Origin: an uncultured Acidobacteriota bacterium
GTDB lineage: Bacteria; Acidobacteriota; UBA6911
Direction: 5' to 3'
NCBI GenBank assembly: GCA_963718845.1
Contig: CAVRAD010000017.1
Span: 403,154-467,153 of the forward strand
Length of the DNA stretch: 64,000 bases
Shown here: positions 20,494-60,668 of the stretch, in pieces
Layout: the number at the start of each line of letters is the position of its first letter
Position numbering within the stretch: position 1 is the first letter of the stretch
Notes under the pieces: model-generated
What the model was told of the DNA's origin: nothing
What the model saw: only the letters and a program-made list of their open reading frames with translations
The model's database searches: none
Position numbers and translations under genes: made by a program

Positions 20494-20528
20494 GGTTACA
20501 GGTTCCAAGTTTCAGGTTTCAGATTTCT
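20494..20528. repeat. heptamer tandem array, about 5 units (GGTTACA GGTTCCA AGTTTCA GGTTTCA GATTTCT), single arm
   Basis: Read directly. It spans the 4-nt gap between DUF447 and the DHPS-like gene and overlaps both gene ends. Confidence 0.4.
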
Positions 20529-21892
20529 TTAGTGCGTCGGAGTATCTAGCGGGAAACGCGGGACCCTCGGATAGATATCCCCAACGAAGTTCTGCTTCCT
20601 GTACATACTTTTTCCCCAGTTGCATGGCCAGAAGCGCTTTTTGTAGCTCTTTCCCCATGTAAAAGGCCTGCGCGGCGTCCTCGATCTTCAGCTGGTCAAA
20701 AATTCTCCGGATATCCGTATCTTTGATGAAGAGAGCATTATTGAACACATAAATAGAATTGCGATCGGCAAAAATGCGAAAATTGCGGTCGCGGATTTGC
20801 GCCTTCATGGCACGCAGCTCTTCTTCGCTGAAGGTCTCGAAGGGCAGGGTCCTTAACAGTAACCAGCCCGTCATTCAGGTGCTTGGGCAGTATTTTGTTC
20901 CGGCACGCGTAATCCATAAGCCGGCGCGCGATATCGAGTTCGCGTACCGCGCCCCGCGCCCAGCTTATCACTTCCGTGGTGAGGACATAATCAATATCAA
21001 GCTCGCTGATTATACCGGCCATCACTGCCGTGATTCCCGTTGTATCGGCATCGGTCAATTCGGTGAGATTGCCGAGTCCCATGAGCATTTCAGCCTTCGG
21101 ATACTTGCGGCGCATTGCGATAAAGTTTCCTATGGATCCGCTGAAGTCAAACCCGATCGGATTTAAGACAGGATCGATGATGTACGAAACACCCCAGGCT
21201 TCCAATCGGGCGATGTTGCGCTCCAGGGATTTCATTCCCTTCTCAGAATCCGGGATAACGACTACCCTGCATCGCAAACGGCGAGCCAGATCGATGTTTT
21301 GAGAATTTATGCTCAGAACGTAATCCGCTCCCGCCTCGTCCGCACTCAGGATATCGCCCGGGTTGAAGGAATCCACGCTAACAGAGAATCCACGTTTCTT
21401 GAGTGCCTTTATTATCCTGCCAATTCCGGGAAAACCTCCCTGCACCGGGCAACCGAGATCGATGATGTCTGCGCCGTTGGCCTGATAATACGAAGCTCTC
21501 TCCAGTACCTGCTCAAGACTCAACTCATAGGCATTAACGATTTCGGCAATGATTTTTGTCCGATAGGCGCCATAGCCTGTCAGGTTCCTGGTGTTTCCGA
21601 AATATTCAGGAATTTCTTTAAGATTTTTGGGGCCCCGTACCACGTCCACGCCCAGCGCATCGACGATTGGCTTCAGATCGCCCTTGCACAATCCTGGAAT
21701 CATAACCCGATCGCAGCCCCTGCTGTTTGCCAGATGCTTTGCTACAAATCGCGTGTCCATTAACGCGGCAACTGAAATCGGAAGAATGGAGATTTCATAT
21801 TCGAACTCCGAGGAAATTTTTTCCAATGTGTCCCTAAGGGAGGGGGCGGCTAGTCTTCCGGTTACAATCAGATAGCGCGCCATTGCTGCCAC
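20512..21892 (-). CDS. dihydropteroate synthase-like pterin-binding protein with C-terminal DUF4346-like domain (MptH-like), one frameshift near 20870
   Basis: ORF 20738..21892 is DHPS-like (ADIIDLGCPVQGG..., SVDSFNP, VLSINS). It continues in ORF 20512..20874 (LLLRTLPFETFSEEELRAMKAQIRDRNFRIFADRNSIYVF). Confidence 0.7.
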
Positions 21893-22100
21893 TCCTCCGA
21901 TTTAAAATCGGGATCGGGGTCGGAATCGAATAGATAGAGCACACTATCGATCCCAATTCTGCCCCTAGACCAACATCCGAAAAGCTGTGTCGCGCCTGCT
22001 TTCATGGGCGTGACAGACTGCTCCGAGGATGGCACAAAGCGCCGGCATATTTCCACTCGAAAAAGTGCTCATGTTCGTGCGAATTATTTTTCTGTCCCGT

Positions 22101-22129
22101 TTGACAAATTCCATCATGAAACTTATCAA
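22101..22129 (+). promoter_or_regulatory. candidate sigma70-type promoter for the hsp20 pair
   Basis: TTGACA (22101-22106), a 17-nt spacer, then TATCAA (22124-22129), about 55 nt upstream of the hsp20 ATG. Confidence 0.35.
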
Positions 22130-22182
22130 AACAACGGAAAAATGATGTAGGTCACAACAAATTCCGAAGGGAGGTTCCATCC

Positions 22183-22653
22183 ATGAGTCTTACATCTTTT
22201 GATTTTGTTGAGGATATGGCGAGAATGCGAAGGGAAATAGACCGGATCCTGGGTGAAGACAGGTTTTCTTCATGGACCTTTCCATTCTCCCAAATTTCTT
22301 TTCTGCCGGGAAAAGCATCACGCGCATATCCGCTGATAAATGTTAGCGAGGACAAAGACAATATTTATGTCGATGCGCTTGCTCCAGGTCTTGATCCCGA
22401 AACCTTGAACGCATCTGTTTCCGGAGACCAGCTCGTCATTTCGGGGGAGAAAAAGCCCTTGCCGAAAAATGTCAAATCCGAGTTTGTCCATCGCAGCGAG
22501 CGATCCACGGGGCAATTCGCTCGAAGCCTTTCCCTTTCCGTTAGCGTGCAAAGCGAAAAGGTTCAGGCCAACTACACGAACGGAGTGCTAAAGATACTCT
22601 TGCCCAAAATGGAAGAAGCAAAGCCCAAACAAATTCAGGTAAAACTGGGATGA
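22183..22653 (+). CDS. Hsp20/alpha-crystallin family small heat shock protein
   Basis: 156 aa with an alpha-crystallin domain (NIYVDALAPGLDPETLNASVSGDQLVISGEKK...GVLKILLPK). Confidence 0.85.
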   Translation: MSLTSFDFVEDMARMRREIDRILGEDRFSSWTFPFSQISFLPGKASRAYPLINVSEDKDNIYVDALAPGLDPETLNASVSGDQLVISGEKKPLPKNVKSEFVHRSERSTGQFARSLSLSVSVQSEKVQANYTNGVLKILLPKMEEAKPKQIQVKLG

Positions 22654-22688
22654 AACAGGCAATGCCATCGATCGTGGAGGGATAAACG

Positions 22689-23158: not shown

Positions 23159-23186
23159 AGGTTTCAGGTTGCAGGTTTCCAGTTAA
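23159..23186. repeat. heptamer tandem array (AGGTTTC AGGTTGC AGGTTTC CAGTTAA)
   Basis: Read directly in the hsp20-phr spacer. The unit is related to the 41.7-kb array. Confidence 0.4.
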
Positions 23187-26661: not shown

Positions 26662-26719
26662 CTAGGAGTCTGTCCGAGTAATAGAAGGGGCCCCTTCTAT
26701 TACTCGGACAGACTCCTAG
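26662..26719. repeat. 58-bp perfect palindrome (copy 2 of 2)
   Basis: ctaggagtctgtccgagtaatagaagggg / ccccttctattactcggacagactcctag, 29-nt arms with no loop. It lies between two co-directional minus-strand genes. Confidence 0.8.
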
Positions 26720-26726
26720 GATCTTT

Positions 26727-27806
26727 TTATGGCTCCAAGCTTTTATGACTCGAAGATGTCAATGTGTCTTCCGGGAAATTGCCTAGCAACAGACGGTTGT
26801 AGATGTCCCCCTGATCGCTTTCTACGCGTTCAAGAGTGCCGGCCGCATACACTAATTCCCCTGCGCGCACCTGTTCACAAAACCGGCCGCGAAAAGAGAT
26901 GATTTGGCTTGGAATTGAGTGCTGCGGACCCTCGATGAGGCGAACGTTGGTTAATAGATATCTGCAGGGAGTGAAGATTGCATCCTGATCATCAGCGATC
27001 GAGGCAGTTATTACCGCCCGTCCGATCGGCGTGTAGCGCAAACTCCCGTACGCATGCCCCGCTTCGTGCGCACTCCGAACGAAGCGGACAAAGTATGCCC
27101 GTTGACGGAATCTTCCCTGGTTTGCTTTGCATTTTTCGAGTTTCACAAATTCTTCATAGGCCATGCGTGTGTCGGCTATGCGTTGCTCAAAAAGCTCCTG
27201 CATCCCAGCGGAATCGAGCCTGTTTAAATCAGGACAGGACTTTTCATCCAGCATTCTTAGTAACGCCCGATATACACTGCGGCAGTTCTCCGTGCCGAAC
27301 ACAACGACATCGAGATCGGACTTTTCCGTGAATAGTCCGGTAAGCAAGGAACCTGTGATGCCCAGAGCCGAGGAAGGAACTTGAGCCTTATTTTGTAGCA
27401 GGCTTAGAAAAGCAACGGCATCCTCTTCGATCTCTGCCCGGATGCACGCCTGTTCCAATTCTCTGTACCTCTGACGCGGATCATATATCTTCTGAACCAT
27501 GGCTTCGGGCACGCTCTGGAGCGTTGTTTGAAATACCGGATCGTAGGCAAGATATTGCGGATAGGTTGACTTTATTTGTTTCTCTTGTTCGTCGAAGTGG
27601 TACAGGCGGCGGTAAAATTTTCCACCCTTTCTTCGATCGCCGCCCGTGGTATCGGGCATGTATCGAAGTACTGCAATCCTCCGATCGGGCGGATGCTCAA
27701 ATCCTTTGACCGCGAAAAACAGACCATCCTTGGTCTCGAGGTAAAAGCTCTCAATTACTTCGGCAAAGGGATCGTCCCTGTCAGGAACGTTCTTATCACG
27801 GTTCAA
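26727..27806 (-). CDS. nucleotidyltransferase-domain protein (archaeal COG1665-like), function unknown
   Basis: 359 aa with a GITGSLLTGLFTEKSDLDVVVFG (GS...D.D) Pol-beta-type NTase motif. The family assignment is tentative. Confidence 0.45.
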   Translation of the reverse strand: MNRDKNVPDRDDPFAEVIESFYLETKDGLFFAVKGFEHPPDRRIAVLRYMPDTTGGDRRKGGKFYRRLYHFDEQEKQIKSTYPQYLAYDPVFQTTLQSVPEAMVQKIYDPRQRYRELEQACIRAEIEEDAVAFLSLLQNKAQVPSSALGITGSLLTGLFTEKSDLDVVVFGTENCRSVYRALLRMLDEKSCPDLNRLDSAGMQELFEQRIADTRMAYEEFVKLEKCKANQGRFRQRAYFVRFVRSAHEAGHAYGSLRYTPIGRAVITASIADDQDAIFTPCRYLLTNVRLIEGPQHSIPSQIISFRGRFCEQVRAGELVYAAGTLERVESDQGDIYNRLLLGNFPEDTLTSSSHKSLEP

Positions 27807-29768: not shown

Positions 29769-29788
29769 TGCATCCGACTCCCGAATGA

Positions 29789-29858
29789 GATTCCAGATTC
29801 GAGATTCCAGATTCCAGATTCGAATTTCAGTCTGGAATCTGGAATCTGGAATCTGGAA
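29789..29858. repeat. inverted heptamer arrays (GATTCCA x about 6 / TCTGGAA x 4) forming a long hairpin
   Basis: The sequence gattcca gattcga gattcca gattcca gattcga atttcag | tctggaa x4 fills the nuoL-nuoM spacer. Confidence 0.85.
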
Positions 29859-31920
29859 TTAAAAGTTAAGCAGTCCGTTGTAATAAATCAAAATAAAAAC
29901 CACGACGCCAACGACCGCCGCCAGCACATATCTCTGGATAAGTCCCGTCTGAAAGGATGTGGCCACGCGATTCAACTTCATGTTGATCCAGCCGACAAAA
30001 TTGACCAGGCCATCCACGATGTAGGTATCGAACAATCTTGACAGCGTAGCCGTTCCGCGCGTTGATGGCCGCAGTCAAATTGACCGCGCCATCCACGAAC
30101 TTGGAATCCACGAAAAAACACGCTCTGCCAAGGTCCTTTAGTGCGGTTGACGAAGAGCGCGTCGTACAGTTCATCCACATAATACTTGCGGTACACCAGG
30201 GTATAGTATCCCTTGATCTTTTCGGCAAACCTGTCCGCCATTCCGGGACACTTCACATAAAAGCGGTGCGCCAAGAAAATACCCGCCAGAGCGATCGCTA
30301 CAGAAAGCGCAGTGAATAGGAATTCCTGCCCCGCGGAATGATGAATCGCCGCCTCGTGGCTTGCCGGGAGCCGCAAAACCGGCTCCAGAAAATGCTCAAA
30401 CCTGTTGGCAATGCCGGTCCATCCCGGAAAGCCCGACAAAACCGCCGACAGTCGACAGCACCGCAAGGGCAGCCAGCGGGTAGACTACATTCCTGGGTGA
30501 CTCGTGGATGTGATGCCGGGTGTGATCATCCATCCTCTCCTGTCCCCAGAACGTCAGGAAGAGAAGCCGGAACATATAAAAGGCCGTCATGCCTGCGCCG
30601 CACCACAGCAGGAACCAGATAACCGGATGGCCGTTGCTCCATGCCCGCCACAGAATTTCATCCTTGCTGAAGAATCCCGCAAACGGAGGAACTCCGGCAA
30701 TCGCGACGGTGCCCGCAAACATCGTCCAATAGGTCCAGGGCAGGTATTTTTTCAGCCCTCCCATCTTCATCATGTCCTGCTCATGGTGCATGGCCATGAT
30801 GACCGATCCGGAACCGAGGAAAAGGAGCGCTTTAAAAAAGGCGTGCGTCATCAGGTGGAAGATGCCGCCGACAAAAGCCCCCACTCCAAGCGCCGCGAAC
30901 ATATAGCCCAGCTGGCTAACAGTGGAATAAGCCAGGACGCGCTTAATATCGGTCTGGGCAAAACCGATCGTCGCGGCAAAGATCGCGGTCAGGGATCCCA
31001 CGACTGCCACGATGATCAGGGTCTCGGGCGCCCGGCTGTAGAGAGCGTTGCTTCGGCAGACCATGTAAACGCCGGCCGTCACCATCGTGGCGGCATGGAT
31101 GAGGGCGGATACGGGGGTAGGACCTTCCATCGCATCCGGCAGCCAGACATACAGGGGGATTTGGGCGCTCTTGCCGCAAGCTCCGATGAAGAAGCAGAGC
31201 GTTGCCCAGAAGAGAAAATCGTGGCCGGTCTGAATCGGCATCGCAGCCGCACTATTGAACACCTCTTCAAAACGCAGCGAACCGAAATGCACGAAAACGA
31301 TCATCATTCCCAGAATGAATCCCGCATCCCCGATCCGATTTACTACGAATGCCTTTTTCCCGGCATCCCCTGCGCTCTTTTTGTCGAAATAAAATCCGAT
31401 CAGCAAGTAGGAGCACAGTCCCACTCCCTCCCACCCGACGAACATCATCACGTAGTTGTTGGCCAGGACCAGGGTGAGCATCGCAAACATGAAGAGGTTC
31501 AGATAAGAGAAGAAGCGATAATACCCGCTGTCGTCCCACATATATCCGGTCGAATACACGTGAATCAGGAAACCAACGCCCGTAACGACCAGGATCATCA
31601 CGGCAGAAAGCGGATCCAGCTGAAATCCCCAGGGCACTTCAAACGTGGCCATGCCTCCGTTCGCCAGGGGAAGGGATCCACTGCTTAGCCACGTAAAGAG
31701 GTCGAGGGAGAACAGCTCTTTGTGTTCAACGGCAAAGAGCTGATACACACACAGCGCGCTCACAATAAAGGCGAGCGCCGACAGATCCAAGAGCGATGAC
31801 GGAAACAAGCCTCTTGTTCAGCTTCCTGCCGGCGCTGCGCAGTGTTATCAATCCTGTCAGGCCGATGAGCGCACTCCCGGCTAACGGCAAACTCGGTATC
31901 AACCAGATATATTTCAGCAT
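29859..31920 (-). CDS. nuoL: NADH-quinone oxidoreductase subunit L, about four frameshifts (near 31790, 30440, 30140, 30050)
   Basis: MLKYIWLIPSLPLAGSALIG...; core ORF 30396..31808 (FVGWEGVGLCSYLLIGFYF...WLPDAMEGPTPVSALIHAATMVTAGVYM). My translation of the last frame ends ...FQTGLIQRYVLAAVVGVVVFILIYYNGLLNF*. Confidence 0.85.
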
Positions 31921-33819: not shown

Positions 33820-33938
33820 AATTTGTTGTTTTTTGTGGCGGTCATTAATCATTAGTAATACTGCCGACTGACACTGACTGCCGACTGCCGACTGCCGACT
33901 GCCGACTGCCGACTGCCGATGCCGACTGCTGACTGCAC
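33762..33938. repeat. inverted heptamer arrays (CAGTCGG-type x about 6; about 58-bp AT-rich spacer; CTGCCGA x about 11)
   Basis: Left arm 33762-33802, right arm 33861-33938 (six consecutive perfect ctgccga units). It lies between convergent genes. Confidence 0.85.
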
Positions 33939-35671: not shown

Positions 35672-35763
35672 GATTCCTGATTCCTGATTCCTCATTCCTG
35701 ACTCCTGATTCTAGGTTGGGCTGTGTTTTTAGTCTGGAATCAGGAATTTGGAATCAGGAATCA
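35672..35763. repeat. inverted heptamer arrays (GATTCCT x 6 / GGAATCA x 4)
   Basis: The sequence gattcct gattcct gattcct cattcct gactcct gattcta ... ggaatca ggaattt ggaatca ggaatca lies between two co-directional minus-strand genes. Confidence 0.85.
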
Positions 35764-38708: not shown

Positions 38709-38802
38709 TGATTCGAGATTCCGGATTCCAGATTTCTGATACCTGATTCGGGATTCCTGATTATTGATCGGGGCTGGCCAATTTGGAATCTGGAATCTTA
38801 AT
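38709..38802. repeat. heptamer arrays (TGATTCG/GGATTCC-type x about 9, then TCTGGAA-type x about 3, inverted)
   Basis: Read directly in the CYTH-asnS spacer. Confidence 0.75.
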
Positions 38803-39365: not shown

Positions 39366-39400
39366 AATCTCGAACCACAAATGCCGAATCTCGAATCAGT
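39366..39400. repeat. degenerate 7-nt periodic spacer (AATCTCGAA twice, 21 nt apart)
   Basis: Read directly between the deaminase-fusion stop and the CYTH start. This is the weakest member of the array family. Confidence 0.3.
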
Positions 39401-40399: not shown

Positions 40400-40430
40400 G
40401 AGGTCAATATGTTAACACACTTATGGGCAA

Positions 40431-41722: not shown

Positions 41723-41736
41723 GCTTCCTCCCTTTT

Positions 41737-41890
41737 AACAGGTTACAGGTTGCAGGTTAACAGGTTAACAGGTTACAGGTTAACAGGTTACAAGTTGCAG
41801 GCTAAAACCTGTATTCTGCAACCTGCAACTTGCAACCGATTGTAACCTGCAACGTCTGCATTGCCTGCGACTTGAAACCTGCAACTTGTA
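41737..41890. repeat. inverted 7-8 nt arrays (AGGTTAC/AGGTTGC/AGGTTAAC x about 9; GCAACCT-type x about 9)
   Basis: Left arm about 41737-41803, right arm about 41808-41890, in the divergent spacer between DUF1343 and HNH. Confidence 0.85.
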
Positions 41891-47627: not shown

Positions 47628-47661
47628 GTCTCTTGCTGGGGCATATGCCCTAGCAAGAGAC
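47628..47661. repeat. 34-bp near-perfect palindrome (gtctcttgctggggcat/atgccctagcaagagac)
   Basis: Read directly, one mismatch. It starts 42 nt after the cupin-like gene stop and may act as its terminator hairpin. Confidence 0.6.
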
Positions 47662-49410: not shown

Positions 49411-49413
49411 GTT

Positions 49414-51243
49414 ATGAACGCATCCATGTTACTATTGGCACCTGTCCTCTTTCCCCTGCTCCTTGCGGTTTTTGTGCTGCCTTTCTGCCGAAGAAATCCG
49501 AAAATCGGAGCGGCTCTGATTCTGCTTTCGGTCGTTGTTTCCGGGCTCGCATTTTGGATGGCGTCCGCATCTTCTCCCAAGGTGGAGTATTCGTGGGTTG
49601 AGTCTTTCACGCTGAGCTTCAGCCTGAACAGTTGGAAAACGTTTCTGCTCTGCTTCGTGTTCCTTTTCCAGCTCATGACAGCCATTTATTCGCTCGGCGC
49701 TCCCCGGCCGGCGCGCCCGCACTTGTACTCCTTTTCGCTGCTCCTGGCATTTTCCTCCGCTATGCCTGGTACTTCTGACCGACAACCTGCTGATTCTTCT
49801 TATTGGCTGGGAACTGTTCCTGGTTGCGCTGTATATGATGATTAACAGCGGAGGGGAAAAAGCCGAACCCGTGGCGCGCAAGGCTCTTGTGATCGGCGGG
49901 GCGAGCGACTTTCTGATGATCTTGGGATTGATGCTCTTTTTCTCTCTTGCCCCGGATCATACGATGAACGCCCGGATCGCAATCGCATCAAATCCGCTGG
50001 CCTTCTGGTCTTTCTTTCTGATCTTCCTGGGAGCTGGCGCTAAAGCCGGAATGTTCCCGTTTCACACATGGATCCCGGATGCCGCCCAGGTAATGCCTGC
50101 CTCCGGTTTTGCGGCGATGCCGGCTTCTCTGGAAAAAGTGCTGGGCATCTACTTTCTGTTTCGTGCTGACAAATCAGATGTTCGTTCTGGACGCGGTCGC
50201 GCGCAGCTGCATGTTCTGTCCTGGGCATCGCGACGGTCTTTGTGGCGATCGTCCCGGCACTGGTTGAAAAGGATTTGCGCAAAGTGCTGGCATTGACGGC
50301 GATTTCCCCGGTCGGCTTCATGCTTTGCGGGATGGCAGTCTCAGAAGCCGCCGGATTTGCCGGAGCGCTGCTGTATATGCTGACTCACGCGACCTACAAG
50401 TCGGCCATGTTTTTCTCACTGGGCAACTTTGAAGAAAAGGCCGGAGGCTCGCAACTGGACCAGCTTCTGGGGATTGCGCGCCGCATGCCGCTTTCGGCCA
50501 CAGCCTTCCTTATGGCGTTCGTGGCGGCGATTTCCCTGCCGCCTACGGGCGGATTCATGGCCAAGGAGCTTATCTTTGAAGGAGCTCTGGAAGGAAAGCA
50601 TATTCTTGTGCTGGCCTTCCTTATCGCCGGAGCGATCCTCAACGTGGCGGTCTTTTCCAAAGTCATCGCGGTGCTTTGGGCTCCGGGAGACGCCCGGAGA
50701 AACGAAGCCAACGGCGTGTGTGTCATTCCGGCAGTCATCCTGGGCGTTGCCGCTCTGGTCGGCGGCTTTTTCTTTCGCCGCGCCGGCGGGCTTCTGGGCG
50801 AAGTCACCGGCGCTCATGAATCGGGCTTGCTGTCCAGCGTGTGGCACTTCTCTCCCCTGACGATCGTCTCGCTGGCGATTTACACGCTGGGCTTCATGGT
50901 GTTTGCGGGGGCACGCAGCGGCCGCGAGAATGCTGCGGAAACGTTCAATCCGCTGGCAACATCTCCAGTTCTCGGCCCGGCCCTGCGCATGGCGAGAGAA
51001 AAGAAATTTGACGCGTATGACATCGGGCTGAAGGGGGTCGATTTCATAACCCGGATCGTGTTCCGCTACGTGGAGCGCATGATCGATGTGCTTGGCCAAT
51101 TCGTCATCCGCAGCGGCCGCTGGCTTTTGCGCCCGGTATTGAGCGGCGCCCATAACGGCATGTACGGCAATTACCTGTGCTGGACTGTCGCAGGTCTTAT
51201 TTTCGTGTTGTTTTACCTGTTCGGCTCCGCCCTCCTGGGCTGA
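49414..51243 (+). CDS. antiporter-like subunit 2 (NuoL/MrpA-like with C-terminal extension), about three frameshifts (near 49765, 50165, 50215)
   Basis: LLIGWELFLVALYMMI..., GAKAGMFPFHTWIPDAAQVMPASGFA..., LALTAISPVGFML..., THATYKSAMFFSLG. A long C-terminal segment is present (GLKGVDFITRIVFRYVERMIDV...). Confidence 0.75.
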
Positions 51244-51267
51244 CGGAGAATAGATTAAGAATTCGAG

Positions 51268-51323
51268 GGAGTCAGAATAACAGCAGATCCTTTTCATTCT
51301 GACTCCTGAATTCTGGCTCCTGA
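51268..51323. repeat. hairpin (GGAGTCAGAAT...ATTCTGACTCC) plus 14-nt direct repeat (ATTCTGACTCCTGA/ATTCTGGCTCCTGA)
   Basis: Read directly in the spacer between antiporter-like subunits 2 and 3. Confidence 0.6.
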
Positions 51324-51334
51324 CATTGAGGTTT

Positions 51335-52780
51335 ATGATGGAATCATACATAGTCTGGATCCTGCTGGTACCGCCCATCGCGGTTCTGCTTATGCCGTGG
51401 GCATCCCGTGCGGGCAAGTGGGCCGCAAACACCCTGGCGATCGCAGCGACGGGGCTTCTGCTGCTCTTTACCCTCCGGCTCATTCCTTCAATCGGGAACG
51501 GGCTGAGGTTCGAGATATTACGGAGCCCGGTTCGCACTGGATAGCGTCAGTCTCCTGTTTCTGGTGGTGGTCAATGCGGTTGCGTTCGCATGCATGATGT
51601 ATGCGACATCCTACATCGGCCATCTCGGAGGCCGGGGAAAGTTCTTTGCCCTGATGATAATCATGGTGTCTGGACTGAACGCGATGCTGCTGACGCGCGA
51701 CCTTTTCAGCCTGTACGTATTCCTCGAAGTGGCATCGATCGCGTCGTACGTGCTGGTTGCGTTCGGGCTCGAGATGACGGCATCGAATCGTCCATCAAAT
51801 ACCTGCTGCTTTCCGCGGTCGCGACGTCGATGATTCTGCTGGGGATCGCGCTGATCTACATGAACACCGGCACTTTGGAGTTTGACGCCTGAAGGGCGAT
51901 CCTGGCGGCCAGGGGGAGATCTTCCTGGAATATTCCTGCTGACGGCGGCGCTCTTCATCGGCGGCTTTGGACTGAAGGCCGCTCTGATGCCGTTCCACTG
52001 CCTGGCTGCCGGACGCGCACCCATCGGCGCCGGCCCCGATATCGGCCATGCTGAGCGGCGTCGTAATCAAGGTTGCAGGCGTCTACGCCCTGGCCCGCAT
52101 TTTCCTCTATATTTTCCCGGCGATCGGCCAGGTGCACGACATATTCCTGATCCTGGGGACGTTTTCGATGATTGCCGGTGCGGTGCTCGCCTACTTCCAG
52201 CGCGACTTCAAGCGCATGCTGGCATACTCGAGTATCAGCCAGATCGGCTACATCATGATCGGGCTCGGCCTTGGAAATCTGCTCGGGTCTGATCGGTGCG
52301 CTTTTCCATGTTTTCAACCACGCGCTTTTCAAATCCCTGCTCTTCTTGAACAGCGGCGCGGTCCAGTACGGCTGGGCACGCGCGACATCGAGGAAATGGG
52401 TGGGCTGGAGAACCGGATGCCGGTCACCAGCATTACGAGCGTATTCGGCACGCTTTCGATCGCCGGCGTGCCGCCTTTCAACGGGTTCTGCAGCAAGCTG
52501 TTCATCATCCTCGGGGCCCTGGCGGCGGGAAAGACTGCCATCGCCGTGCTCGCGATCCTGATGAGCATTTTCACACTCGGGTATTTCCTCATCATTCAGC
52601 GCAAAGTGTTCTTCGGGAAAGCTCAACGAAAAATGGCAGGACATCCGCGAAGCTCCCTTTGCCATGTCGTGTGCCGTCATTCTCCTGGCTGCCGCATGCA
52701 TTCTGAGCGGGATCTTTTTCCAATCCGTCACACGCGGCATCGTGGAACCGGCGGCCTTGATTTTACTGGGAGGCAAATAG
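51335..52780 (+). CDS. antiporter-like subunit 3 (NuoM/MrpD family), about nine frame changes
   Basis: My reconstruction across all three frames: ...FALDSVSLLFLVVVNAVAFACMMYATSYIG..., SLYVFLEVASIASYVLVAFG..., GLKAALMPFH.WLPDAHPSAPAPISAMLSGVVIKVAGVYALARIF..., MLAYSSISQIGYIMIGLGLG..., ALFHVFNHALFKSLLFL..., ends ...IVEPAALILLGGK*. Confidence 0.75.
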
Positions 52781-52781
52781 G

Positions 52782-53268
52782 ATGCTGCTTTGGATTCTTC
52801 TGGGATTGCTGGTCTTGCTCTCCATCGGCTGCTGTATATTTCAGGATCTGCTGTATGTCGCGGTTGCCTGGCGACGGTTTCCGCGATTCTGGCGCTCGTG
52901 CTATTCCATTCGGCGCCAACATCGCCGGGGTTTTTGAATTGAGCGTCTGCGCCGGGCTGATTACGGTGCTTTTCATTGCCACGGTCAGTCTGACCAAGGA
53001 TTCCGACCAAAAAGTGGAGACGCGGCTGCCGGCCTACTTCGTCCCCCTGGTTGTGCTGATTTTCATCGGCATGGACTATTTCATCATGCAGTGGCTGGCG
53101 CATTCGGTGCTGCCGCTGGTGACGCCGACGCGTCGGGGACATTTCAGAAGGTGTTCTGGGAAATCAGGAGTGCCGACATCCTCGGCCAGATTGGCCTGAT
53201 ACTGGCGCGGCGTCTTCGGAATCCTTTCCCTATTCCGCCTCGCGGGGAAGGAGAAAAAACATGAATAA
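52782..53268 (+). CDS. MrpB/MnhB-like membrane subunit (MbhD/E/F-like), about four frame changes
   Basis: Reconstructed: MLLWILLGLLVLLSIGCCIFQDLLYVAVA..ATVSAILALVLFHSAPNIAGVFELSVCAGLITVLFIATVSL...VFWEIRSADILGQIGLILAGVFGILSLFRLAGKEKKHE*. The AP..A..E..V.AG..TVLF and R..D.LG motifs are MnhB-like. Confidence 0.6.
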
Positions 53269-53570
53269 CGAAATCTTCCTTTTATTGAGCTGCGGCATTG
53301 CTGGTGTTGATGCGGGCGTCTATATACTCATCCTGTACCGCAATCTCCTGCGCTTGATCATTGGAGTGGAGATCATTGCAAAAGGCGTCACTTTGGTATT
53401 TCTCGCGGCCGGGGATCCATCGTCAGGATGTCGGCTTCATACAATCGCTGATCGTCACATTTATCATCGTCGAAACAGTCCTGGCCGCCATCATGCTGGC
53501 ACTGGCCGTCCGGGCGCAGAAAATATACGGTTCGCTGGACATTCGCAATTTATCCAAACTGAGGGGATAA
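53261..53570 (+). CDS. MrpC/NuoK-like membrane subunit (HyfE/MbhG-like), one frameshift near 53412
   Basis: MNNEIFLLLSCGIAGVDAGVYILILYRNLLRLIIGVEIIAKGVTLVFLAAG joins to ...FIQSLIVTFIIVETVLAAIMLALAVRAQKIYGSLD. The ATG overlaps the upstream stop. Confidence 0.65.
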
Positions 53571-53572
53571 CA

Positions 53573-53903
53573 ATGGATCTGTCGATACTTTTATCACCAC
53601 CGGTGGCTTTCCTTGTATGCCTCGGCTCAGCGCCGGCATTTACGGTTCGGCCACTGGTGGAAGAGAAAGGCCGTGCCGGTAAAGGGCAAATACGAACCCT
53701 ATGCCTGCGGTGAGAATTACAAAGCCGAAAAGTTCCATTTCGGATACAGGAAATTCTACATTGCGGCCATCTTTTTCACCATCATGCATGTAGCGGTCCT
53801 GACGATTGCAACGGTACCCGGCGGCGCCGGCGCCTATCGCGCCCTGATTTACCTGGGGGCGATTGCAGCTTCCATTTCCTGTATCTATATGGAATTCGAT
53901 TAG
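53573..53903 (+). CDS. small membrane subunit, NuoA-like, one frameshift near 53655
   Basis: MDLSILLSPPVAFLVCLG..., then KGKYEPYACGENYKAEKFHFGYRKFYIAAIFFTIMHVAVL. Compare the NuoA K..YECG....F.v.FYlvAilFliFDvE pattern. The assignment is tentative. Confidence 0.45.
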
Positions 53904-53984
53904 AAGCTCGTGGATTCCGAGAGACGTCGGGAGTCCGAATCCGGAAGTCAGAATGCGCAGTTCATCAGTAAACTCAGAGGCCAT

Positions 53985-54418
53985 ATGCTGGAAAAACTCA
54001 AGACTTGGGCCAGGGTAAAATCTCCCTGGATTTTGCATTTCAACTCGGGGGCCTGCAATGGCTGCGACATTGAGATCCTCGCGGCCCTGATGCCCCATTA
54101 CGATCTGGAACGGTTCGGCGTTCTTCTGAAAGCCTCGCCGCGCCACGCCGATATCCTGGTGTGCAGCGGGCCGGTAACAAAGCAGATCGCGAAGCGCCTG
54201 CGCCGCATCTATGACCAGATGCCGGAACCCAAGTTTGTCGTTGCGGTCGGCGCCTGTGCCTGCAGCGGCGGCGCATTTCGCGGCTGCTACAACGTGATGG
54301 AAGGGATCGACAGGTCATCCCGGTTTCAGCATACATTCCCGGATGCCCCATAAGACCGGAAGCGATCATCGACGGCGTGGCCAAGCTGCTCGGCAGCCTG
54401 CAGAAGAAGACTGCGTAA
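53985..54418 (+). CDS. [NiFe]-hydrogenase small subunit, group 4 (NuoB/HycG/MbhJ-like), one frameshift near 54312
   Basis: MLEKLKTWARVKSPWILHFNSGACNGCDIEILAA..., PKFVVAVGACACSGGAF... After the frame change: VIPVSAYIPGCPIRPEAIIDGV. All four cluster cysteine positions are present. Confidence 0.85.
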
Positions 54419-54426
54419 AAGGAGGA

Positions 54427-56095
54427 ATGACCATGACAGTGGATTTTGAAGCAAGATTGAAGGAGGCATTCCCCAACTCGGGTAACCCTCGGATCAAACG
54501 GCCGATTCTGGGTTGCACTGACTCCGGATGGATTGATTCCGGCCGTTATCGACCCTGCGCGAGAAGTTCTCGCATCGTCCAGCTGGCCGTTATCGTCGGC
54601 GAAGATGTGCGCGACGCGTTTCTGGTGCAATTACATATTCACCGGCGAAAAAGTCGTCGTGCTGCAGGTCCGGATAGACCACGAAAAACCAGAAGTCCCG
54701 ACACTGGCCGACATATGCCCGGCGCCATCGTCTACGAACGGGAACTGAAGGACCTGTTCGGCATCAATCCGGTCGGGCATCCCGACCTCCGACGCCAGGC
54801 CGTGCCCGAAGAATGGCCGGAAGGCGTTTACCCGCTGCGCAAAGATGTGCAATTCAACAAAACAGAGGAATCTGAGCAAAGGAGGCAAAATAACATGGAT
54901 GAATCGACCTTTCGCATACCCATAGGCCCGCAGCATCCGTTCCTGAAGGAACCGGCCAAATTTGATTTCGACATCCACGGAGAAGAGATCGTCGGCGCCC
55001 GCATGAACATCGGGTACAACCACCGTGGAATCGAAAAAGCCTGCGAAGAACGGAATTATTACCAGTGCCTTTACCTCCTCGAGCGCATCTGCGGCATCTG
55101 CTCCCACTCCCACACGACCGCGTTTGTTCAGGCGGTCGAAGAAATCATGAACCTGGAAGTGCCCCGGCGCGGGCTTTATCTGCGCACGCTGGTTTGCGAA
55201 CTGGAACGGCTGCACAGTCATCTGCTCTGGCTTGGCGTCGCGGCCCATGAGGTCGGTTTCGACTCGATGTTCATGCTGGTCTGGCGCGACCGTGAACTCG
55301 TCATGGATATCCTGGAGGAGATCAGCGGAAACCGGGTCAACTACGCAATCAACACGATCGGCGGAGTGCGGCGCGACCTTACCGACGCGCAGCGCAACAA
55401 AGATCCTGAAGCATGCTTGGCATCCTCAAACAGCGGCTCGACTACTACGTCCACATCGGCACCAACGAACCCAGTTTCGTGGGTCGCATCCAGGGCGTCG
55501 GCAAACTGCCTCCAAACGCGCGGCCGAGATGTGCGTGGTCGGGCCTTTTGCCCGGGCCAGCGCAGTAGATACCGATATCCGCCGCGACGACCCATACGCC
55601 GCCTACCGGGAGCTCGATTTCAAGGTAATCACGCACGACTCGGGCGATATTTACGGCCGCGTGATCGTGCGCGTCTTGGAGATCGTAGAATCCTGCAAAA
55701 TGATCGAACAGCTGCTGACAAACCTTCCCGAAGGGGACATCGTCGCACCCAAAGTGTCGCGCAAAGCACCCGCCGGCGTTGCCGTCAGCCGCTACGAGGC
55801 CCCGCGCGGGGAAGACGTCCACTTCGTCCGCGGCAACGGCACGGACAAGCCGGAGCGGGTCCGGGTTCGCGCCCCCACGATGGCAAATCTCGAGGCGGCC
55901 ACCGAATCGGTCATCGGTTCCTACGTAGCCGACATCCCGATCGCGATCGCATCCATCGACCCGTGCTTCTCGTGCACGGACCGCATGGCAATCGTGCTCC
56001 GCGATCGCAAGAACGGAACCCGGGTCACCACATGGGAAGAACTGCGCCGCTACGGCATTGATTGGTACGGCAAAAACAAAGGGATCCGTTTCTGA
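54427..56095 (+). CDS. [NiFe]-hydrogenase large subunit, group 4, HycE-like NuoC-NuoD fusion, about seven frame changes
   Basis: NuoC-like part: ...EKVVVLQVRIDHEKPEVPTLADICPGAIVYERELKDLFGINPVGHPDLRR. NuoD-like part: MNIGYNHRGIEK...LLERICGICSHSHTTAF (L1 Ni motif) ...VVGPFARAS...PRGEDVHFV...ASIDPCFSCTDR (L2 Ni motif). No stop separates the two parts in the sequenced frame; total about 556 aa. Confidence 0.85.
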
Positions 56096-56111
56096 TCCTG
56101 GGGGGGAGTGA

Positions 56112-57079
56112 ATGGAAGTCATCAAGCCAATTTTGTATATCCTGGTGTTCCCCGGTTTTGCTTTCCAGTTCGTCTTTTCGACTTACCTGGAATGGATGGA
56201 CCGGAAACTCTATGCGCGCATGCAGAACCGGCGCGGCCCGCTGTACACCGGCTATCAGGGCATCCTTCAGCCGTGGCCGATATATTCAAGCTCTTCTTCA
56301 AGGAAGATATCGTTCCGGCCGGTGCCGACCGCTTCATGTTCAGCCTTATGCCGATCCTGGGACTTGCCGCGGTGGTAACAGCCGGGCTGTATATCCCCGT
56401 GTGGTTTTTCACGCCGTACAATTCATTTGAAGGCGACCTGATCGTCGTGCTCTATCTGCTCTCGATCCCCACACTGGTGCTGTTTCTCGCAGGCTGGTTT
56501 TCTGTCAGCCCCTTCAGCCTGATCGGGGCGACGCGCGTTCTTACGCAGCTGTTCGCCTATGAAGTCCCGTTTTTCCTTGCCCTGCTGACTCCGGCCGTGG
56601 TTGCCGGAAGCTGGAAGATCCAGAAAATCGCGGCATTCCCCTGGACCAGCGGCGCCTGGTGGGTCATCCCGCTCCAGATACCGGCATTCGTGGTAGCGCT
56701 GCTGACTCTGCAGGCGAAGCTTGAGCGCGTTCCGTTCGATATCCCCGAGGCCGAGACCGAAGTAGTCGGGGGACCGTTGACGGAATACAGCGGCAAAAAG
56801 CTGGCGATGTTCCGGATTCAGAAAGATATCTTGATGCTGGTCGGCTCGGCATTCATCGCGGCTCTGTTCCTTGGCGGCTTCCTGGGCGGGATCTGGCTGG
56901 GCGGGCTGCAGCTTATGATAAAAACGATTTTCATCGTCTTCCTGCTCAGCGTCATCCGGGCGGCATTCGCCCGGATCCGAATAGACCAGATCGTGACTTT
57001 CAGCTGGAAATACCTGGCGCCCGTGAGCCTGATCCAGCTTTTGATCGTTCTTCTCCTCAAAGGAAATGGAGTATTTTAA
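56112..57079 (+). CDS. membrane subunit NuoH/HycD/MbhM-like, one frameshift near 56270
   Basis: MEVIKPILYILVFPGFAFQFVFSTYLEWMDRKLYARMQNRRGP... joins to ADIFKLFFKEDIVP...ERVPFDIPEAETEVVGGPLTEYSG. Confidence 0.8.
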
Positions 57080-57081
57080 TT

Positions 57082-57480
57082 ATGGTAGCAGGTGTATTTA
57101 TCCCCGAGCTGTTAAGCAATTTGGCCGAAACCCCGGCGACGCGCGGATATCCCTTCACAAAAGCTCTGGTTGCCGAAGGATTCCGCGGCACGCCGCGCAT
57201 GAGACCCGGCCTCTGCGTCGGATGCCAGGCTTGTGTGCGCGATTGCACATCGGAAGCAATTGAAATCCTGTTGAAACCGCCCAGCCCGTCTGATCCCCCG
57301 CTGGAAGAAGGGAAGAAGCCGGCGAAGAAGTTCCAGATGATTCTTTATCTGGACCGATGCATTCATTGTGCCCGCTGCGCCGAGGTTTGTCCCAAAGACG
57401 CGATCTATCTCGACCAGGAATTCGAAGTCGCAAATTTTACCCGCGAGCCTTGCGGCTTGTGTTTGAATAGGATTCCGGAT
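57082..57480 (+). CDS. 2x[4Fe-4S] ferredoxin subunit NuoI/HycF/MbhN-like (3' end uncertain)
   Basis: CVGCQACVRDC and CIHCARCAEVCP motifs. The sequenced frame reads through a heptamer array into the next gene (track ORF 57082..57744), so the true stop is probably lost to an indel near 57450-57480. Confidence 0.7.
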
Positions 57481-57497
57481 TCCGGCTTCCAGATCCT
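57470..57497. repeat. short heptamer array (GGATTCC GGATTCC GGCTTCC AGATCCT)
   Basis: Read directly at the NuoI-like / protease junction. Confidence 0.4.
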
Positions 57498-57508
57498 CGA
57501 AATTCGAG

Positions 57509-57978
57509 ATGGTGAATATAGACACGCTTTCAGAAATTTTAAAGACCCGTCCCCTATTGCTGCTGGGGATGGGCAATCCTTTGCGCGGGGACGATGCCAT
57601 AGGGCATCTGCTCGCGGAAGAGTTGGAACCCCTCAATCGCGAGGGGTTCCAGGCCCACGCCGTGGGAACGGCAGTCGAAAACGCCATGCGCTGGGTTCGC
57701 GAAACCGCCGGCGGGACACTCCTTCTGGTGGATGCCGTATTTGACGAAACGCTCGCAGAAGGATCCTGGGCTTTCTATCCACCAAGCAGCTCGATTCCAT
57801 CTGCCATTCCACGCATTCCATCCCGCTCTCCATGCTGATTTCCTACTGGCAAAAGGAAGTGCCTGCCCTTCAAGTATATTTTCTCGGTATCAGCATCCGC
57901 AGCAGCATGGATATGGCCCCGTTATCCCCAACTCTGCGGCAAACTCTTCAATCTTTGAAATCACTCTTTCACGAATAG
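57509..57978 (+). CDS. hycI: hydrogenase maturation endopeptidase (HycI/HyaD family), one frameshift near 57790
   Basis: PLLLLGMGNPLRGDDAIGHLLAEEL...LLLVDAV... After the frame change: QLDSICHSTHSIPLSMLISYW...VYFLGI. Confidence 0.75.
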
Positions 57979-58732: not shown

Positions 58733-59599
58733 ATGTTTTCTCACGCGTACAGGAAAAGGAATTTGCTCTTATTATTAGCTTTAATCGTATCCCTTTGCCT
58801 TGCGCCGGCCGCTTCCAGCCAAGAAGCACCTGATCTCAAAAGTTTGCCAATTCCTCCGGACCTTAAATCTCAGGTCCAGCTATCCATTGACTTGGGTCGT
58901 GAACTCTATTGGCAGGACAAGGCATCGGCGATCGGCACAGACGCCCTAATGGAAAAACTCGGCACATTGGAGGGAAAGGGGCTGATCGGATATATAACTG
59001 TGCGGGAAGGAAACGATGTTGGCAAACCGTTGCCATCGTTTTTGGTGCTGTTCTTCACTGGGGGCGATTTCCCCAAAATTTCATATCGAATACGCGTCCC
59101 TATGGTGCAGGGGCAAAAGCCTCAGGTGGAGGCCTTGCCGGTTGCTGAAGAGCCGAATGCAGGGATTTTGAATCTGTTCCGCGCTCGGCAAACCGCACTT
59201 AAGGCTTTGCAGCCTTTTCACCAGCCCATCAACCCAGTAGTTCTTCCGGCAGAAGCAGTTGGGCAAAAGGGAGTGCTTGTGGAACTGCTTGCCGGCACGA
59301 ACAAACCGGATATCGTGGTGTTGGGGAAACACTACAGGGTCATTGTCAGCGAAGATGGTCGCCAAGTGCAGCAAGTTATGCCGCTTTCCAAAACGATGCT
59401 AGAACTCAAAAAGGACAACAACACCGTTGCGCTCTTTGTGACACACCTCGTGACAGATTATCCTTTGGAAACTCACGTATTCGCCAGCATGCTTAATAAT
59501 ATTGATATCTGCGTTGGAACACAGAGAGGGATTTGGCTAGTCAAGAAGGACGCCATAGCTCTTAGCTCTCTGGACGTGCCCGGCAAGAAAAACAAGTAA
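58733..59599 (+). CDS. hypothetical secreted protein
   Basis: 288 aa with a signal peptide (NLLLLLALIVSLCLAPAASSQ) and AAGGAG upstream. I recognise no family. Confidence 0.45.
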   Translation: MFSHAYRKRNLLLLLALIVSLCLAPAASSQEAPDLKSLPIPPDLKSQVQLSIDLGRELYWQDKASAIGTDALMEKLGTLEGKGLIGYITVREGNDVGKPLPSFLVLFFTGGDFPKISYRIRVPMVQGQKPQVEALPVAEEPNAGILNLFRARQTALKALQPFHQPINPVVLPAEAVGQKGVLVELLAGTNKPDIVVLGKHYRVIVSEDGRQVQQVMPLSKTMLELKKDNNTVALFVTHLVTDYPLETHVFASMLNNIDICVGTQRGIWLVKKDAIALSSLDVPGKKNK

Positions 59600-59616
59600 T
59601 GCAAAGCAGGGAGGAG

Positions 59617-59646
59617 TCTGGAATCTGGAATTTGGAATCGATTCGG
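59617..59646. repeat. heptamer array (TCTGGAA TCTGGAA TTTGGAA) ending in palindrome GAATCGATTC
   Basis: Read directly between convergent genes. Confidence 0.7.
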
Positions 59647-59648
59647 CG

Positions 59649-60546
59649 CTACTGCTTCTGCAACTCCTCCAGAACGGCGAGCACAAGCCTTCCCGTTTTT
59701 TCCAGGCTTTCAGGGCTTATTTTGTCGAGAGAGTCTTCGAGTGTGTGGTGGTAGGAATTTCCCGGACCGTAATTAAGATCTATGATATCAACACTGGGGA
59801 TGCCGACATCCAAAAATGGCAGGTGATCGTCCTCCACTGCCGTCTGATAGGAAGACAGGATGGACTTAAGACCGATTTTGGCCGCAGTATCCCGCACCAA
59901 GTCCATAAGGCGTTTCGTAGAGTTTGTCTCATAGAAGATATCGAGATCCTTGTCGCCGATCATATCGAGCAGAATCAGAGCGCGAATCCTCGGAACAATC
60001 CCTTCCGCTTTCCAGCGTTGGGCCAGATGCCGGCTTCCATACGTGCTGTCAAACGTGCTCCATTCCACGAAGGCCTCTTCCCCATCCAGAAACACAAACC
60101 AATAATCGAGCGGATCCTTGTTTGCGGCAAGCACTCTGGCAAGTTCAAGCAGAAGGCCCGTACTGCTTCCTGCGTCGTTCGCGCCGACGAAGTTCTTGCC
60201 CTCCATCAGTTTGGTATCGTAATGGGTTGCCAGCACGATTGCGCCCTTCCGCCCTTCTCCTTTGCGCGCAATCAGGTTCTGCATTTGGATAGGGCCGTAG
60301 GGCGTCCCCGCAATGAATGTGTCTTTCTCAATCCCGTAGCCGAAACCGCGCATCTGCTGCTCGATATATTCGCGGCATTTCTGCAGTTTCGGCGATCCCG
60401 GAGGACGAGGGCCGAATGCCACCTGTGCCCGGACGTGTTCCATCGCCTTCTCACCGCTAAGTGCGGCGCGTTTCCGACGAAGCCCGCGGTTCACAGGCGC
60501 ATAAGACCATAACGATAGTAAGTGCCAGTCCGAGAGTAGAGCGCAT
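59649..60546 (-). CDS. M28 family metallopeptidase (glutaminyl-cyclase-like) lipoprotein, one frameshift near 60485
   Basis: GANDAGSSTGLLLELARVLA...WFVFLDGEEAF...LDMIGD. My translation finds the lipoprotein signal MRSTLGLALTIVMVLCAC in another frame starting at 60546. Confidence 0.75.
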
Positions 60547-60589
60547 GGTTCACTCCCTGTCCATGGAGGATACAGGAATGTCTACCAGC

Positions 60590-60668
60590 ATTCCAGATTC
60601 CGGATTCCAGATTCCATGATTTCCGATTGTATTTAGTTCGGAATTTCGGAATTTGGAATTTGGAATCG
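60590..60668. repeat. inverted heptamer arrays (ATTCCAG-type x about 4-5 / TTGGAAT-type x about 4)
   Basis: attccag attccgg attccag attccat ... cggaatt tcggaat ttggaat ttggaat, in a divergent spacer. Confidence 0.85.

Follow-up and report, generated by a model that had tools for sequence, protein, structure and literature searches.

The intergenic spacers of a 64,000-nt stretch of DNA from an uncultured Acidobacteriota bacterium (lineage UBA6911; contig CAVRAD010000017.1 of assembly GCA_963718845.1, positions 403,154 to 467,153; hereafter the window) contain arrays of tandem 7-nt units, which are often followed by their own reverse complement. We are confident that these arrays are heptanucleotide simple-sequence repeats (SSRs) and that they are neither transcription terminators nor phase-variable switches. 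Our preferred reading, held with moderate confidence, is that inverted repeats between genes have had their arms expanded by these units, and that the resulting elements behave as intercistronic stem-loops of the repetitive extragenic palindromic (REP) type. Taken separately, an origin by slippage on hairpins is tentative, and a REP-like role of the RNA, as opposed to no role, is doubtful. The class itself is already known. The acidobacterial form, previously undescribed, is distinguished by its many unit families, by hairpins that dominate operon spacers and by its on/off distribution within one phylum; literature searches found no report of such arrays in Acidobacteria.

Heptanucleotide arrays in the window

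Using Tandem Repeats Finder (TRF), we detected arrays of period 7, 8 and 14 in the window (the multiples 14 and 21 of period 7 also occurred) at 12 of the 13 loci listed in a preliminary description of this DNA. Between 20.4 and 60.7 kb, 12 spacers carried period-7 arrays, one of them of period 8, with copy numbers of 2.7-10.7, and 2 further spacers were degenerate; the figure of at least 14 spacers given in that description is reached only when the degenerate loci are counted. We also counted exact lag-p runs of at least 12 matches in the window and in 50 dinucleotide-preserving shuffles. The results showed 5 runs at p = 7, 2 at p = 8, 6 at p = 14 and 1 at p = 15, with none at the remaining periods from 2 to 13, while the shuffles gave approximately 0 at any period. 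Period 7 is the sole enriched short period in the window, and the period first described (7, occasionally 8 or 14) is borne out by both TRF and the lag-run counts. For the window, the possibility that such arrays are no commoner than in shuffled DNA falls, as they are absent from the shuffles.

The same arrays were found at orthologous sites in separate metagenome assemblies (L082, L083/L090, L084 and L086), and arrays are present in Illumina-type as well as long-read metagenome-assembled genomes (MAGs). Since independent assemblies of both kinds carry the arrays at orthologous positions, an assembly artefact is excluded and the arrays are real. A search of the entire window against Rfam at gathering thresholds returned no family. 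The window units comprise GATTCCN, CTGCCGA, AGGTTNC and GGTTTCA. The description of the period as conserved and the sequence as not conserved is right in that the units vary, but one family with a GGAATC/GATTCC core is common to 6 loci, or 8 with the degenerate variants at 51268 and 53911. The loci are as follows (copy numbers from TRF; genes named by Pfam where applicable).

20494-20527, genes on the minus strand: single arm of GGTTWCA, ~4.9 copies, no reverse-complement partner within 200 nt; immediately 5' of the DUF447 start and overlapping the end of the upstream DUF6513/pterin-binding open reading frame (ORF), co-directional
23159-23177: short single arm of AGGTTKC, 2.7 copies; divergent spacer; the weakest true array
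29788-29821 and 29831-29859, minus strand: two-armed, (AGATTCC)4.9 then (TCTGGAA)4.1; nuoL-nuoM spacer
33762-33802 and 33860-33936: two-armed, (CAGTCGK)~5 then (ACTGCCG)10.7, 57-nt loop; convergent epimerase and beta-propeller genes
35672-35711 and 35735-35763, genes on the minus strand: two-armed, (GATTCCT)5.7 then (GGAATCA)4; co-directional genes
38709-38762 and 38780-38798, minus strand: unequal two-armed, degenerate (TGATTCC)7.7 then (AATCTGG)2.7; fills the space between the stop of a CYTH gene and the start of a class II aminoacyl-tRNA synthetase gene
39366-39400: two AATCTCGAA copies 21 nt apart, no TRF row
40429-40473: single arm of period 8, AAGGGGTA, 5.6 copies, degenerating, no partner arm; 5' of a kinase/deaminase gene start; G-rich on the plus strand
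41735-41801 and 41816-41888: two-armed, (ACAGGTT/AACAGGTT)~8.7 then (CTGCAAC)~5; divergent spacer between NamZ-like and HNH genes
51267-51323: hairpin GGGAGTCAGAAT / ATTCTGACTCC (51267-51306), the 3' arm running on as two copies of the 14-nt repeat ATTCTGACTCCTGA (TRF 51296-51323); in the hydrogenase operon, flanked by two genes for antiporter-like subunits
53911-53955: degenerate GAWTC-type heptamers (GGATTCC...GGAGTCC GAATCCG GAAGTCA GAATGCG), TRF period-14 row at 53928-53954; spacer 5' of a NuoB-like small-subunit gene
57470-57494: single arm of GGATTCC, 3.6 copies; 15 nt 5' of the HycI-like maturation protease start
59613-59639: single arm of GGAATCT, 3.9 copies, then one inverted unit GATTCG; convergent genes
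60585-60628 and 60640-60666: two-armed, (CCAGATT)5 then (GGAATTT)3.7; divergent spacer between M28 peptidase and EF-G genes

Locus 39366, which had been listed as an array, consists merely of the two separated copies and is at most a decayed relative of the GAWTC family; the orthologous spacer in L090 is 13 nt long. The array at 40429-40473, the sole one of period 8, is (GGGGTAAA)3 decaying into more G-tracts. It recalls the GGGGAYT repeats of Nostoc (PMC4692102) and, judging from its G4 tracts only, could form a G-quadruplex on the plus strand.

Inverted arms and predicted hairpins

Seven of the 13 loci (29788, 33762, 35672, 38709, 41735, 51268 and 60585) have reverse-complement arms, and five (20494, 23159, 40429, 57470 and 59613) are single-armed. 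The two-armed organisation attributed at first to most loci is therefore real at seven of them, about half. The minimum free energy (MFE) of the seven as RNA ranged from -24 to -62 kcal/mol; five strong hairpins lay between -37 and -62 kcal/mol as RNA, with z-scores of -6.3 to -8.0 when 33762, folded as DNA, is included. At 29788, the arms of 29 nt are 97% complementary (-49.7 kcal/mol, z -7.9). The values were -43 kcal/mol (z -7.7) at 35672, -62.4 kcal/mol (z -6.3) at 41735, and -37.2 kcal/mol (z -6.3) with a continuous 20-bp stem at 60585. Weaker folds were obtained at 38709 (-26.3 kcal/mol, z -2.1) and 51267 (-24.1 kcal/mol, z -3.0). The 33762 locus folded as DNA at -44.2 kcal/mol (z -8.0), and the frequency of its MFE structure in the ensemble was 0.0002, pointing to many alternative pairing registers. 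Foldable hairpins with many registers, as first proposed, thus agree with the low computed energies and, for the registers, with the ensemble at 33762.

The hairpins lie close to the ends of the flanking genes. In the nuoL-nuoM spacer, where the genes on both sides encode Pfam Proton_antipo_M proteins and orthologous hairpins exist in L082, L086, L084 and L083, the first unit touches the nuoL stop and the last unit ends ~20 nt 5' of the nuoM ATG, leaving a GGGAG Shine-Dalgarno sequence free. At 35672, the stop codon of the upstream gene (35761-35763) is inside the last unit, and the downstream gene has its Shine-Dalgarno sequence after the other arm.

Distribution of the arrays across Acidobacteriota

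The NuoM-like protein of the window matched Acidobacteriota MAGs only, at best with 86% identity over 338 residues and 72% over the full length, and an exact-protein look-up gave no record. As a comparison set, 80 related loci (1.4 Mb) were scanned with TRF. The results showed 138 rows of period 7, compared with 4, 8, 20, 9 and 4 rows of periods 5, 6, 8, 10 and 11, respectively. Non-redundant period-7 arrays were intergenic in 115 cases and coding in 13, even though coding sequence makes up ~81% of the DNA; at periods 9, 12 and 15, most arrays were coding. Together, the window and its relatives contained 46 two-armed clusters, and ~40% of the arrays were followed by their own reverse complement, giving stems of 20-35 bp.

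Array density differed strongly between lineages. Per 10 kb, we found 2.0 arrays in Acidobacteriaceae, 1.8 in Sulfotelmatobacter and 6.9 in Korobacteraceae, against 0.12 in Vicinamibacteria, 0.2 in Bryobacterales, and 0 in both Thermoanaerobaculia and Acidiferrales. Exact two-copy lag-7 repeats in intergenic DNA followed the same division: 63 were counted against 4.3 expected in the array-rich lineages, and 8 against 8.2 expected in the array-poor ones. These results show that the 7-nt tandem bias in non-coding DNA is a trait of some lineages only. The clade of the window was recovered by a metagenome scan anchored on the nuoM N-terminus; its relatives at 85-95% nucleotide identity (L082, L083/L090, L084, L086) carry GAWTC-type arrays, while no arrays were found in those at 68-78% identity (L081, L085, L087, L089, L091). 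The preferred core is GGAATC in the clade of the window and AGCT in Acidobacteriaceae. The first 50 kb of the Granulicella tundricola plasmid pACIX901 held no heptamer arrays, which is uninformative since plasmids may lack them.

In the Terriglobales loci L094 (7327-7401, 7711-7788 and 9925-10000) and L104, each spacer between nuoJ, nuoK, nuoL and nuoM, 75-102 nt long, is a heptamer hairpin, with units of the CGAACGA and AGCTNTT families. In many other Acidobacteriota, the nuoL-nuoM spacer is just 8-69 nt and repeat-free.

Placement relative to genes

With flanking genes checked by Pfam, the 12 array spacers of the window divide into 7 co-directional, 2 convergent and 3 divergent, and they include the nuoL-nuoM spacer and spacers of the group-4 [NiFe]-hydrogenase operon. 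The placement given in the preliminary description, among genes of all three orientations and inside these operons, was thereby confirmed. In the array-rich lineages, 68 of 191 co-directional spacers (36%) and 14 of 35 convergent spacers (40%) were occupied, compared with 4 of 44 divergent ones (9%; Fisher p = 3e-4). This is the distribution known for REP elements, and it could reflect either a function 3' of genes or a bar on arrays in promoters. The median distance from the upstream stop to the start of a two-armed hairpin is 6 nt (10 nt or less in 26 of 37), and that from its end to the next ORF start is 10 nt; arrays take up the space between a stop codon and the ribosome-binding site that follows. 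Most arrays are located 3' of a gene and within a transcription unit, so the two-armed ones are expected to be transcribed into long intercistronic stem-loops.

Persistence and turnover of the arrays

The nuoL-nuoM spacer is occupied by a two-armed heptamer hairpin in the clade of the window and, separately, in ~17 of 21 Terriglobales-type loci. The units differ between groups (AGCTNCT/AGCTAGA, CGAGCNN, AGTCGAC, AGCANTT), and the arms are complementary within each genome. Duplexes between the arms of one genome averaged -41 kcal/mol, and those between arms crossed between genomes -21 kcal/mol, indicating that the arms co-vary. In L082, which is 94-95% identical to the window, the 5' arm is kept (TTCCAGA x4), and all four units of the 3' arm have changed from GGAATCT to GGAATCA, so that every seventh base is mismatched and the fold weakens from -49.7 to -30.7 kcal/mol.

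Other spacers tell of growth and replacement in place. In the convergent spacer at ~33760, L086 and L083/L090 hold only a short GGCAGTCG/CGACTGCC stem, and the window has 5 and ~10 units of that sequence; the short unexpanded stem in the relatives suggests that the 33762 array grew from the arms of an existing hairpin. In the spacers at 35662 and 38703, relatives bear two-armed arrays of other units: AATTCGA/TCGAATT arms in L086 and CTGATTC/GAATCAG arms in L083 at the former, and an array of CAGCTGT type in L090 at the latter, where L002 has a 36-nt spacer without an array. These results show that spacer occupancy lasts over family-level divergence, and that the units turn over at approximately the neutral rate, at times concertedly in one arm.

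For a population sample, we compared ten contigs with identical NuoM (consensus assemblies, 99.2-99.98% identity over 5-17 kb). Neither single-nucleotide polymorphisms (SNPs) nor indels were found in the arrays of these ten contigs, while the genes showed scattered SNPs; four further contigs were identical to each other, and L083 and L090 (99.94%) had no indel in 7.9 kb. The proposal of a slipped-strand hypervariable locus did not survive this comparison, and a phase-variable contingency SSR was rejected, there being no copy-number change among the near-identical consensus assemblies.

Tests of a function at the RNA or DNA level

A terminator scan found no T-tail at the heptamer hairpins and none of them among the terminator-like sites. 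In L094 and L104, which have proper gene calls, heptamer hairpins lie between nuoJ, K, L and M, and classic terminators with a GC stem and a T-run follow atpE (L094 15300-15335 and L104 15265-15300, for example AAAAAGCCCCTGC-TGGT-GCAGGGGTTTTTCTTT), indicating that Terriglobales genomes use ordinary terminators beside heptamer hairpins. An intrinsic terminator was thus rejected, the hairpins having no U-run, lying inside operons and existing separately from terminators of classic form; with the arrays of divergent spacers, this disposes of the terminator or attenuator role suggested earlier.

Four further candidates were tried and rejected. A palindromic 4-mer core, as in a restriction or methylation site (GANTC/AGCT), was present in 56 of 138 units against 56.7 expected. 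A purine-rich, Shine-Dalgarno-like 3' arm was found in 25 cases against 17, which is not significant. Frame-independent stops, meaning stop codons in all frames of the sense strand in single arrays, occurred in 19 against 16 arrays, and an asymmetry of G:U wobble or MFE in favour of the transcribed strand was likewise discarded (109 against 107 G:U pairs). A role as an element of mRNA stability or processing, also proposed at the outset, is the best surviving functional idea, but it is without any strand-specific signature.

Relation to described repeat classes

Heptanucleotides are the most abundant class of long SSRs in most prokaryotic genomes, and these SSRs with units of 5-11 nt are non-coding, polymerase slippage having been proposed to explain them (Mrázek et al. 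2007, as related in PMC4679880 and PMC4692102). The acidobacterial arrays agree with this class in having head-to-tail units beyond chance (5 lag-7 runs against 0 in the 50 shuffles), a dominant unit of 7 nt (138 rows) and a mainly non-coding location (115 against 13). They differ in their host, as Acidobacteria are not among the repeat-rich genomes named in these accounts of the survey. In a 2014 survey, 7-nt repeats alone among the SSR classes had positive medians in several phyla, and their median was 0 in Acidobacteria, represented by four genera (PMC4060949). That the trait is on in some lineages of a phylum and off in others argues against a universal footprint of the polymerase.

The nearest published case is that of Xanthomonas, where each genome has 70-75 inverted pairs of intergenic GGGAATC-type heptamers in convergent orientation (Rehm et al. 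2015, PMC4692102). Position and repeat type are kept between species while length and sequence vary, and most are transcribed (PMC4692102). As in the window, a conserved core is combined with variable positions (GGGANTN in Xanthomonas, NGGAATC here), and we found complementary arrays in convergent orientation at 7 window loci. The dominant window unit NGGAATC, present at 29788-29859, 35672-35763, 59613-59639 and elsewhere, is identical to GGGAATC at 6 of 7 positions and contains GANTC. The preliminary description saw no described class to which the arrays belong; this cannot stand, since the inverted heptamer pairs of Xanthomonas have the same organisation and nearly the same unit, and heptamer long SSRs are known. 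There are also differences. Xanthomonas belongs to another phylum; its units contain GGG tracts and were characterised as G-quadruplex formers, whereas the main window family has just GG, and GGGG occurs solely in the 40429 array; and one family dominates there, in contrast to the many unrelated units here (CTGCCGA, AGGTTNC, GGTTTCA; in Terriglobales AGCTNNN, CGAACGA, AACTGAG).

The likeness to cyanobacterial short tandemly repeated repetitive (STRR) heptamers and REP elements that was first remarked on is apt. STRR and TAACTGA repeats (Beggiatoaceae, Cyanobacteria, Bacteroidetes) are likewise tandem heptamers, almost all intergenic, lineage-restricted and scattered (PMC4679880), and the Terriglobales units AACTGAG and AACTGAC match TAACTGA at 6 of 7 positions. 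In both STRR and TAACTGA arrays, a few fixed sequences recur, mostly as direct repeats; a single inverted set was reported in the Beggiatoa genome, and the TAACTGA arrays have a set orientation with respect to the start codon downstream (PMC4679880). By comparison, ~40% of the acidobacterial arrays are two-armed, their units are diverse, and they have no orientation bias. No window unit matches STRR1-3 and the host belongs to Acidobacteriota, so membership of the cyanobacterial family was rejected. The STRR1-3 units are CCCCAGT, TTGGTCA and CAACAGT and occur in heterocystous cyanobacteria.

REP elements and BIMEs of enterobacteria and Correia elements of Neisseria are intergenic hairpins 3' of genes, found in co-directional and convergent spacers and inside operons, and rarely between divergent genes; protection of mRNA 3' ends or RNase III processing has been proposed as their role. 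They are copies of one conserved sequence spread by transposition, through RAYT or through terminal inverted repeats with target duplication. The acidobacterial elements, unlike these, share only the period, consist of tandem units and evolve in place. Loops, flanks and units differ between loci, there is no GTAG/CGTC tag and no Rfam match, and membership of the REP/REPIN class was rejected; a RAYT (Y1 transposase) domain was absent from the 30 window ORFs scanned with Pfam, which represent 64 kb of the genome. A CRISPR array was discarded because the units are 7-8 nt long and contiguous.

Proposed mechanism and alternative explanations

In the mechanism that we propose, 7-nt units would be duplicated by a slippage-type process, and the arrays would often expand on both arms of an inverted repeat already present in the spacer, as at 33762. 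Template switches inside the hairpin, weak selection to maintain pairing, or both may keep the arms alike, and selection would purge arrays from coding DNA and from divergent spacers, which contain promoters only. Once transcribed, stems of 20-35 bp could act like REP/BIME or Correia-type elements as a barrier to 3' exonucleases, and would be a likely substrate of RNase III. Folding would loop out the inserted DNA, so that the upstream stop and the downstream start remain adjacent.

Several observations weigh against this proposal. Approximately 60% of the arrays have no partner arm, and the copy numbers of the two arms are only weakly correlated (rho 0.18, not significant, by a crude measure). 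Three window arrays lie in divergent spacers. The data also have limits: gene calls in the related loci were crude ORF calls, and as these loci are all nuoM neighbourhoods, the spacer statistics are biased to one operon. In 37 co-directional two-armed hairpins, G:U pairs numbered 109 in the sense and 107 in the antisense direction, and the MFE difference was not significant (a looser comparison of whole spacers gave p = 0.06); single-armed arrays show neither purine nor stop-triplet strand bias, and the arm order is without purine bias. With all these tests null, there is no strand-specific signature of an RNA function. The stability of the nuoL-nuoM stem is not conserved (window -49.7, L082 -30.7, L086 -35.0, L084 -16.5 and L083 -21.4 kcal/mol), and the folds of L084 and L083 are no better than those of shuffles. 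No slippage event was seen at population scale among the ten near-identical contigs. In addition, the bias is absent from whole sister classes, which makes simple polymerase slippage insufficient and calls for a lineage-specific factor.

The main rival is a purely mutational by-product, in which a lineage-specific bias of replication or repair makes 7-nt duplications and the arrays are neutral or slightly deleterious filler with functionless hairpins. We consider it unlikely but serious. It accounts for the missing strand asymmetry of any kind, the single-armed majority, and the unconserved stem stability in orthologues, where one arm can change concertedly and leave periodic mismatches; spacer divergence between the window and L082 (~16%) is of the order expected for unconstrained sites, and purifying selection alone explains the depletion from divergent spacers and coding DNA. 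It is harder to reconcile with occupancy of the same spacers over family-level divergence despite the usual bacterial deletion bias, with the co-variation of arms across unit families, with arrays that are invariant in the ten strains while flanking genes carry SNPs, and with hairpins whose ends lie tightly against stop and start codons. Long-lasting occupancy, co-varying arms and tight bracketing speak for some constraint; the missing strand bias and the unconserved stability speak for no function. The strand symmetry of all measured properties is most compatible with a role of the duplex DNA, which it fits better than a role of the RNA: a protein that measures ~7 nt per protomer might bind the arrays (such as a single-strand binder of OB-fold or cold-shock type, a nucleoid-associated protein or, as at BIMEs, gyrase), or cruciforms might organise supercoiling. 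A conserved period with variable sequence, a preferred core per lineage (GGAATC here, AGCT in Acidobacteriaceae) and a lineage-specific presence suggestive of a lineage-specific partner would agree with such a role, and CspB binds one protein per heptamer (PMC4679880). However, no candidate protein was identified, the unit sequences are highly diverse inside one genome, and 7 nt mismatches the helical repeat of the duplex; we assign this idea a very low probability.

Rho-independent terminators or attenuators built from repeats would explain strong hairpins 3' of genes, the two loci between convergent genes (33762 and 59613) and the enrichment in co-directional and convergent spacers. Yet the stems have no T-run and were missed by the terminator scan, they separate nuoJ/K/L/M genes and hydrogenase subunit genes that need co-expression, some lie in divergent spacers, and related genomes place classic terminators of a different form at operon ends; this reading is highly improbable. 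We give hardly any credence to mobile repeats of REP/REPIN or MITE-like type that a transposase would have spread, or to phase-variable contingency loci. The GGAATC/GATTCC core common to several window loci and the REP-like placement recall the former, and tandem repeats as such the latter, but loops and flanks are unrelated between loci and show no terminal inverted repeats, target duplications or GTAG/CGTC tags, units change in place at orthologous sites, near-identical strains have no copy-number differences, and most arrays are outside promoters and 5' coding regions. Beside the preferred reading of SSRs growing on hairpin arms, we also consider a dedicated heritable factor in Terriglobales and the subclade of the window, either a protein with a 7-nt measure or a special activity in replication or repair, which would actively make and maintain heptamer hairpins as 'punctuation' between cistrons; its probability is low.

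Neighbouring genes and other repeats of the window

Some arrays reach into coding sequence. The left arm at 33762-33819 codes for the last ~20 residues of the epimerase ORF, and the tail of the ferredoxin-subunit ORF reads through the array at 57470-57494, with the stretch NRIPDSGFQI of its translation encoded by the array. Since arrays overlap ORF ends at 33762 and 57470, and a stop codon lies inside a unit at 35761-35763, array growth can remodel protein C-termini. The window also carries indel errors or pseudogenes: nuoL has four single-base insertions (31780, 30435, 30136 and 30068) relative to both L082, where it is intact with 695 aa, and L086, and the NamZ gene (41722-40548), the gene of an antiporter-like hydrogenase subunit (51337-53199) and the DUF6513/pterin-binding gene (21892-20512) are split across several frames. 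The ORF limits beside arrays should therefore be read with care.

A perfect 58-nt palindrome that is not heptamer-based (CTAGGAGTCTGTCCGAGTAATAGAAGGGGCCCC and its complement) lies at 26662-26719 between two minus-strand ORFs and is followed by a 16-nt direct repeat at 26725-26755. A loopless inverted repeat of 17 + 17 nt (GTCTCTTGCTGGGGCAT / ATGCCCTAGCAAGAGAC) is located at 47628-47661, just 3' of the ORF ending at 47586 and 5' of the group-4 energy-converting hydrogenase operon (47960-57744). At 19933-21892, the DUF447 gene adjoins the DUF6513/pterin-binding gene; genes of these two kinds are usually tied to cofactor metabolism of the tetrahydromethanopterin type.

Significance

The arrays inflate intergenic spacers in soil Acidobacteria and can lengthen ORFs with array-encoded C-terminal tails; they will confuse predictors of terminators and small RNAs, and possibly assemblers. 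The occupancy of spacers is ancient and, within populations, stable, even as the sequence of the repeats turns over. The preference of bacteria for seven-base tandem repeats has been a minor open puzzle since STRR (1990) and the long-SSR survey of 2007. The trait is strong in some lineages and absent in sister classes, which renders it practical to look for the gene or genes responsible; if a dedicated factor exists, the on/off distribution would let phylogenetic profiling identify what lies behind the heptamer preference. These arrays are of value mainly for comparative work on why seven-base repeats are favoured in bacteria.

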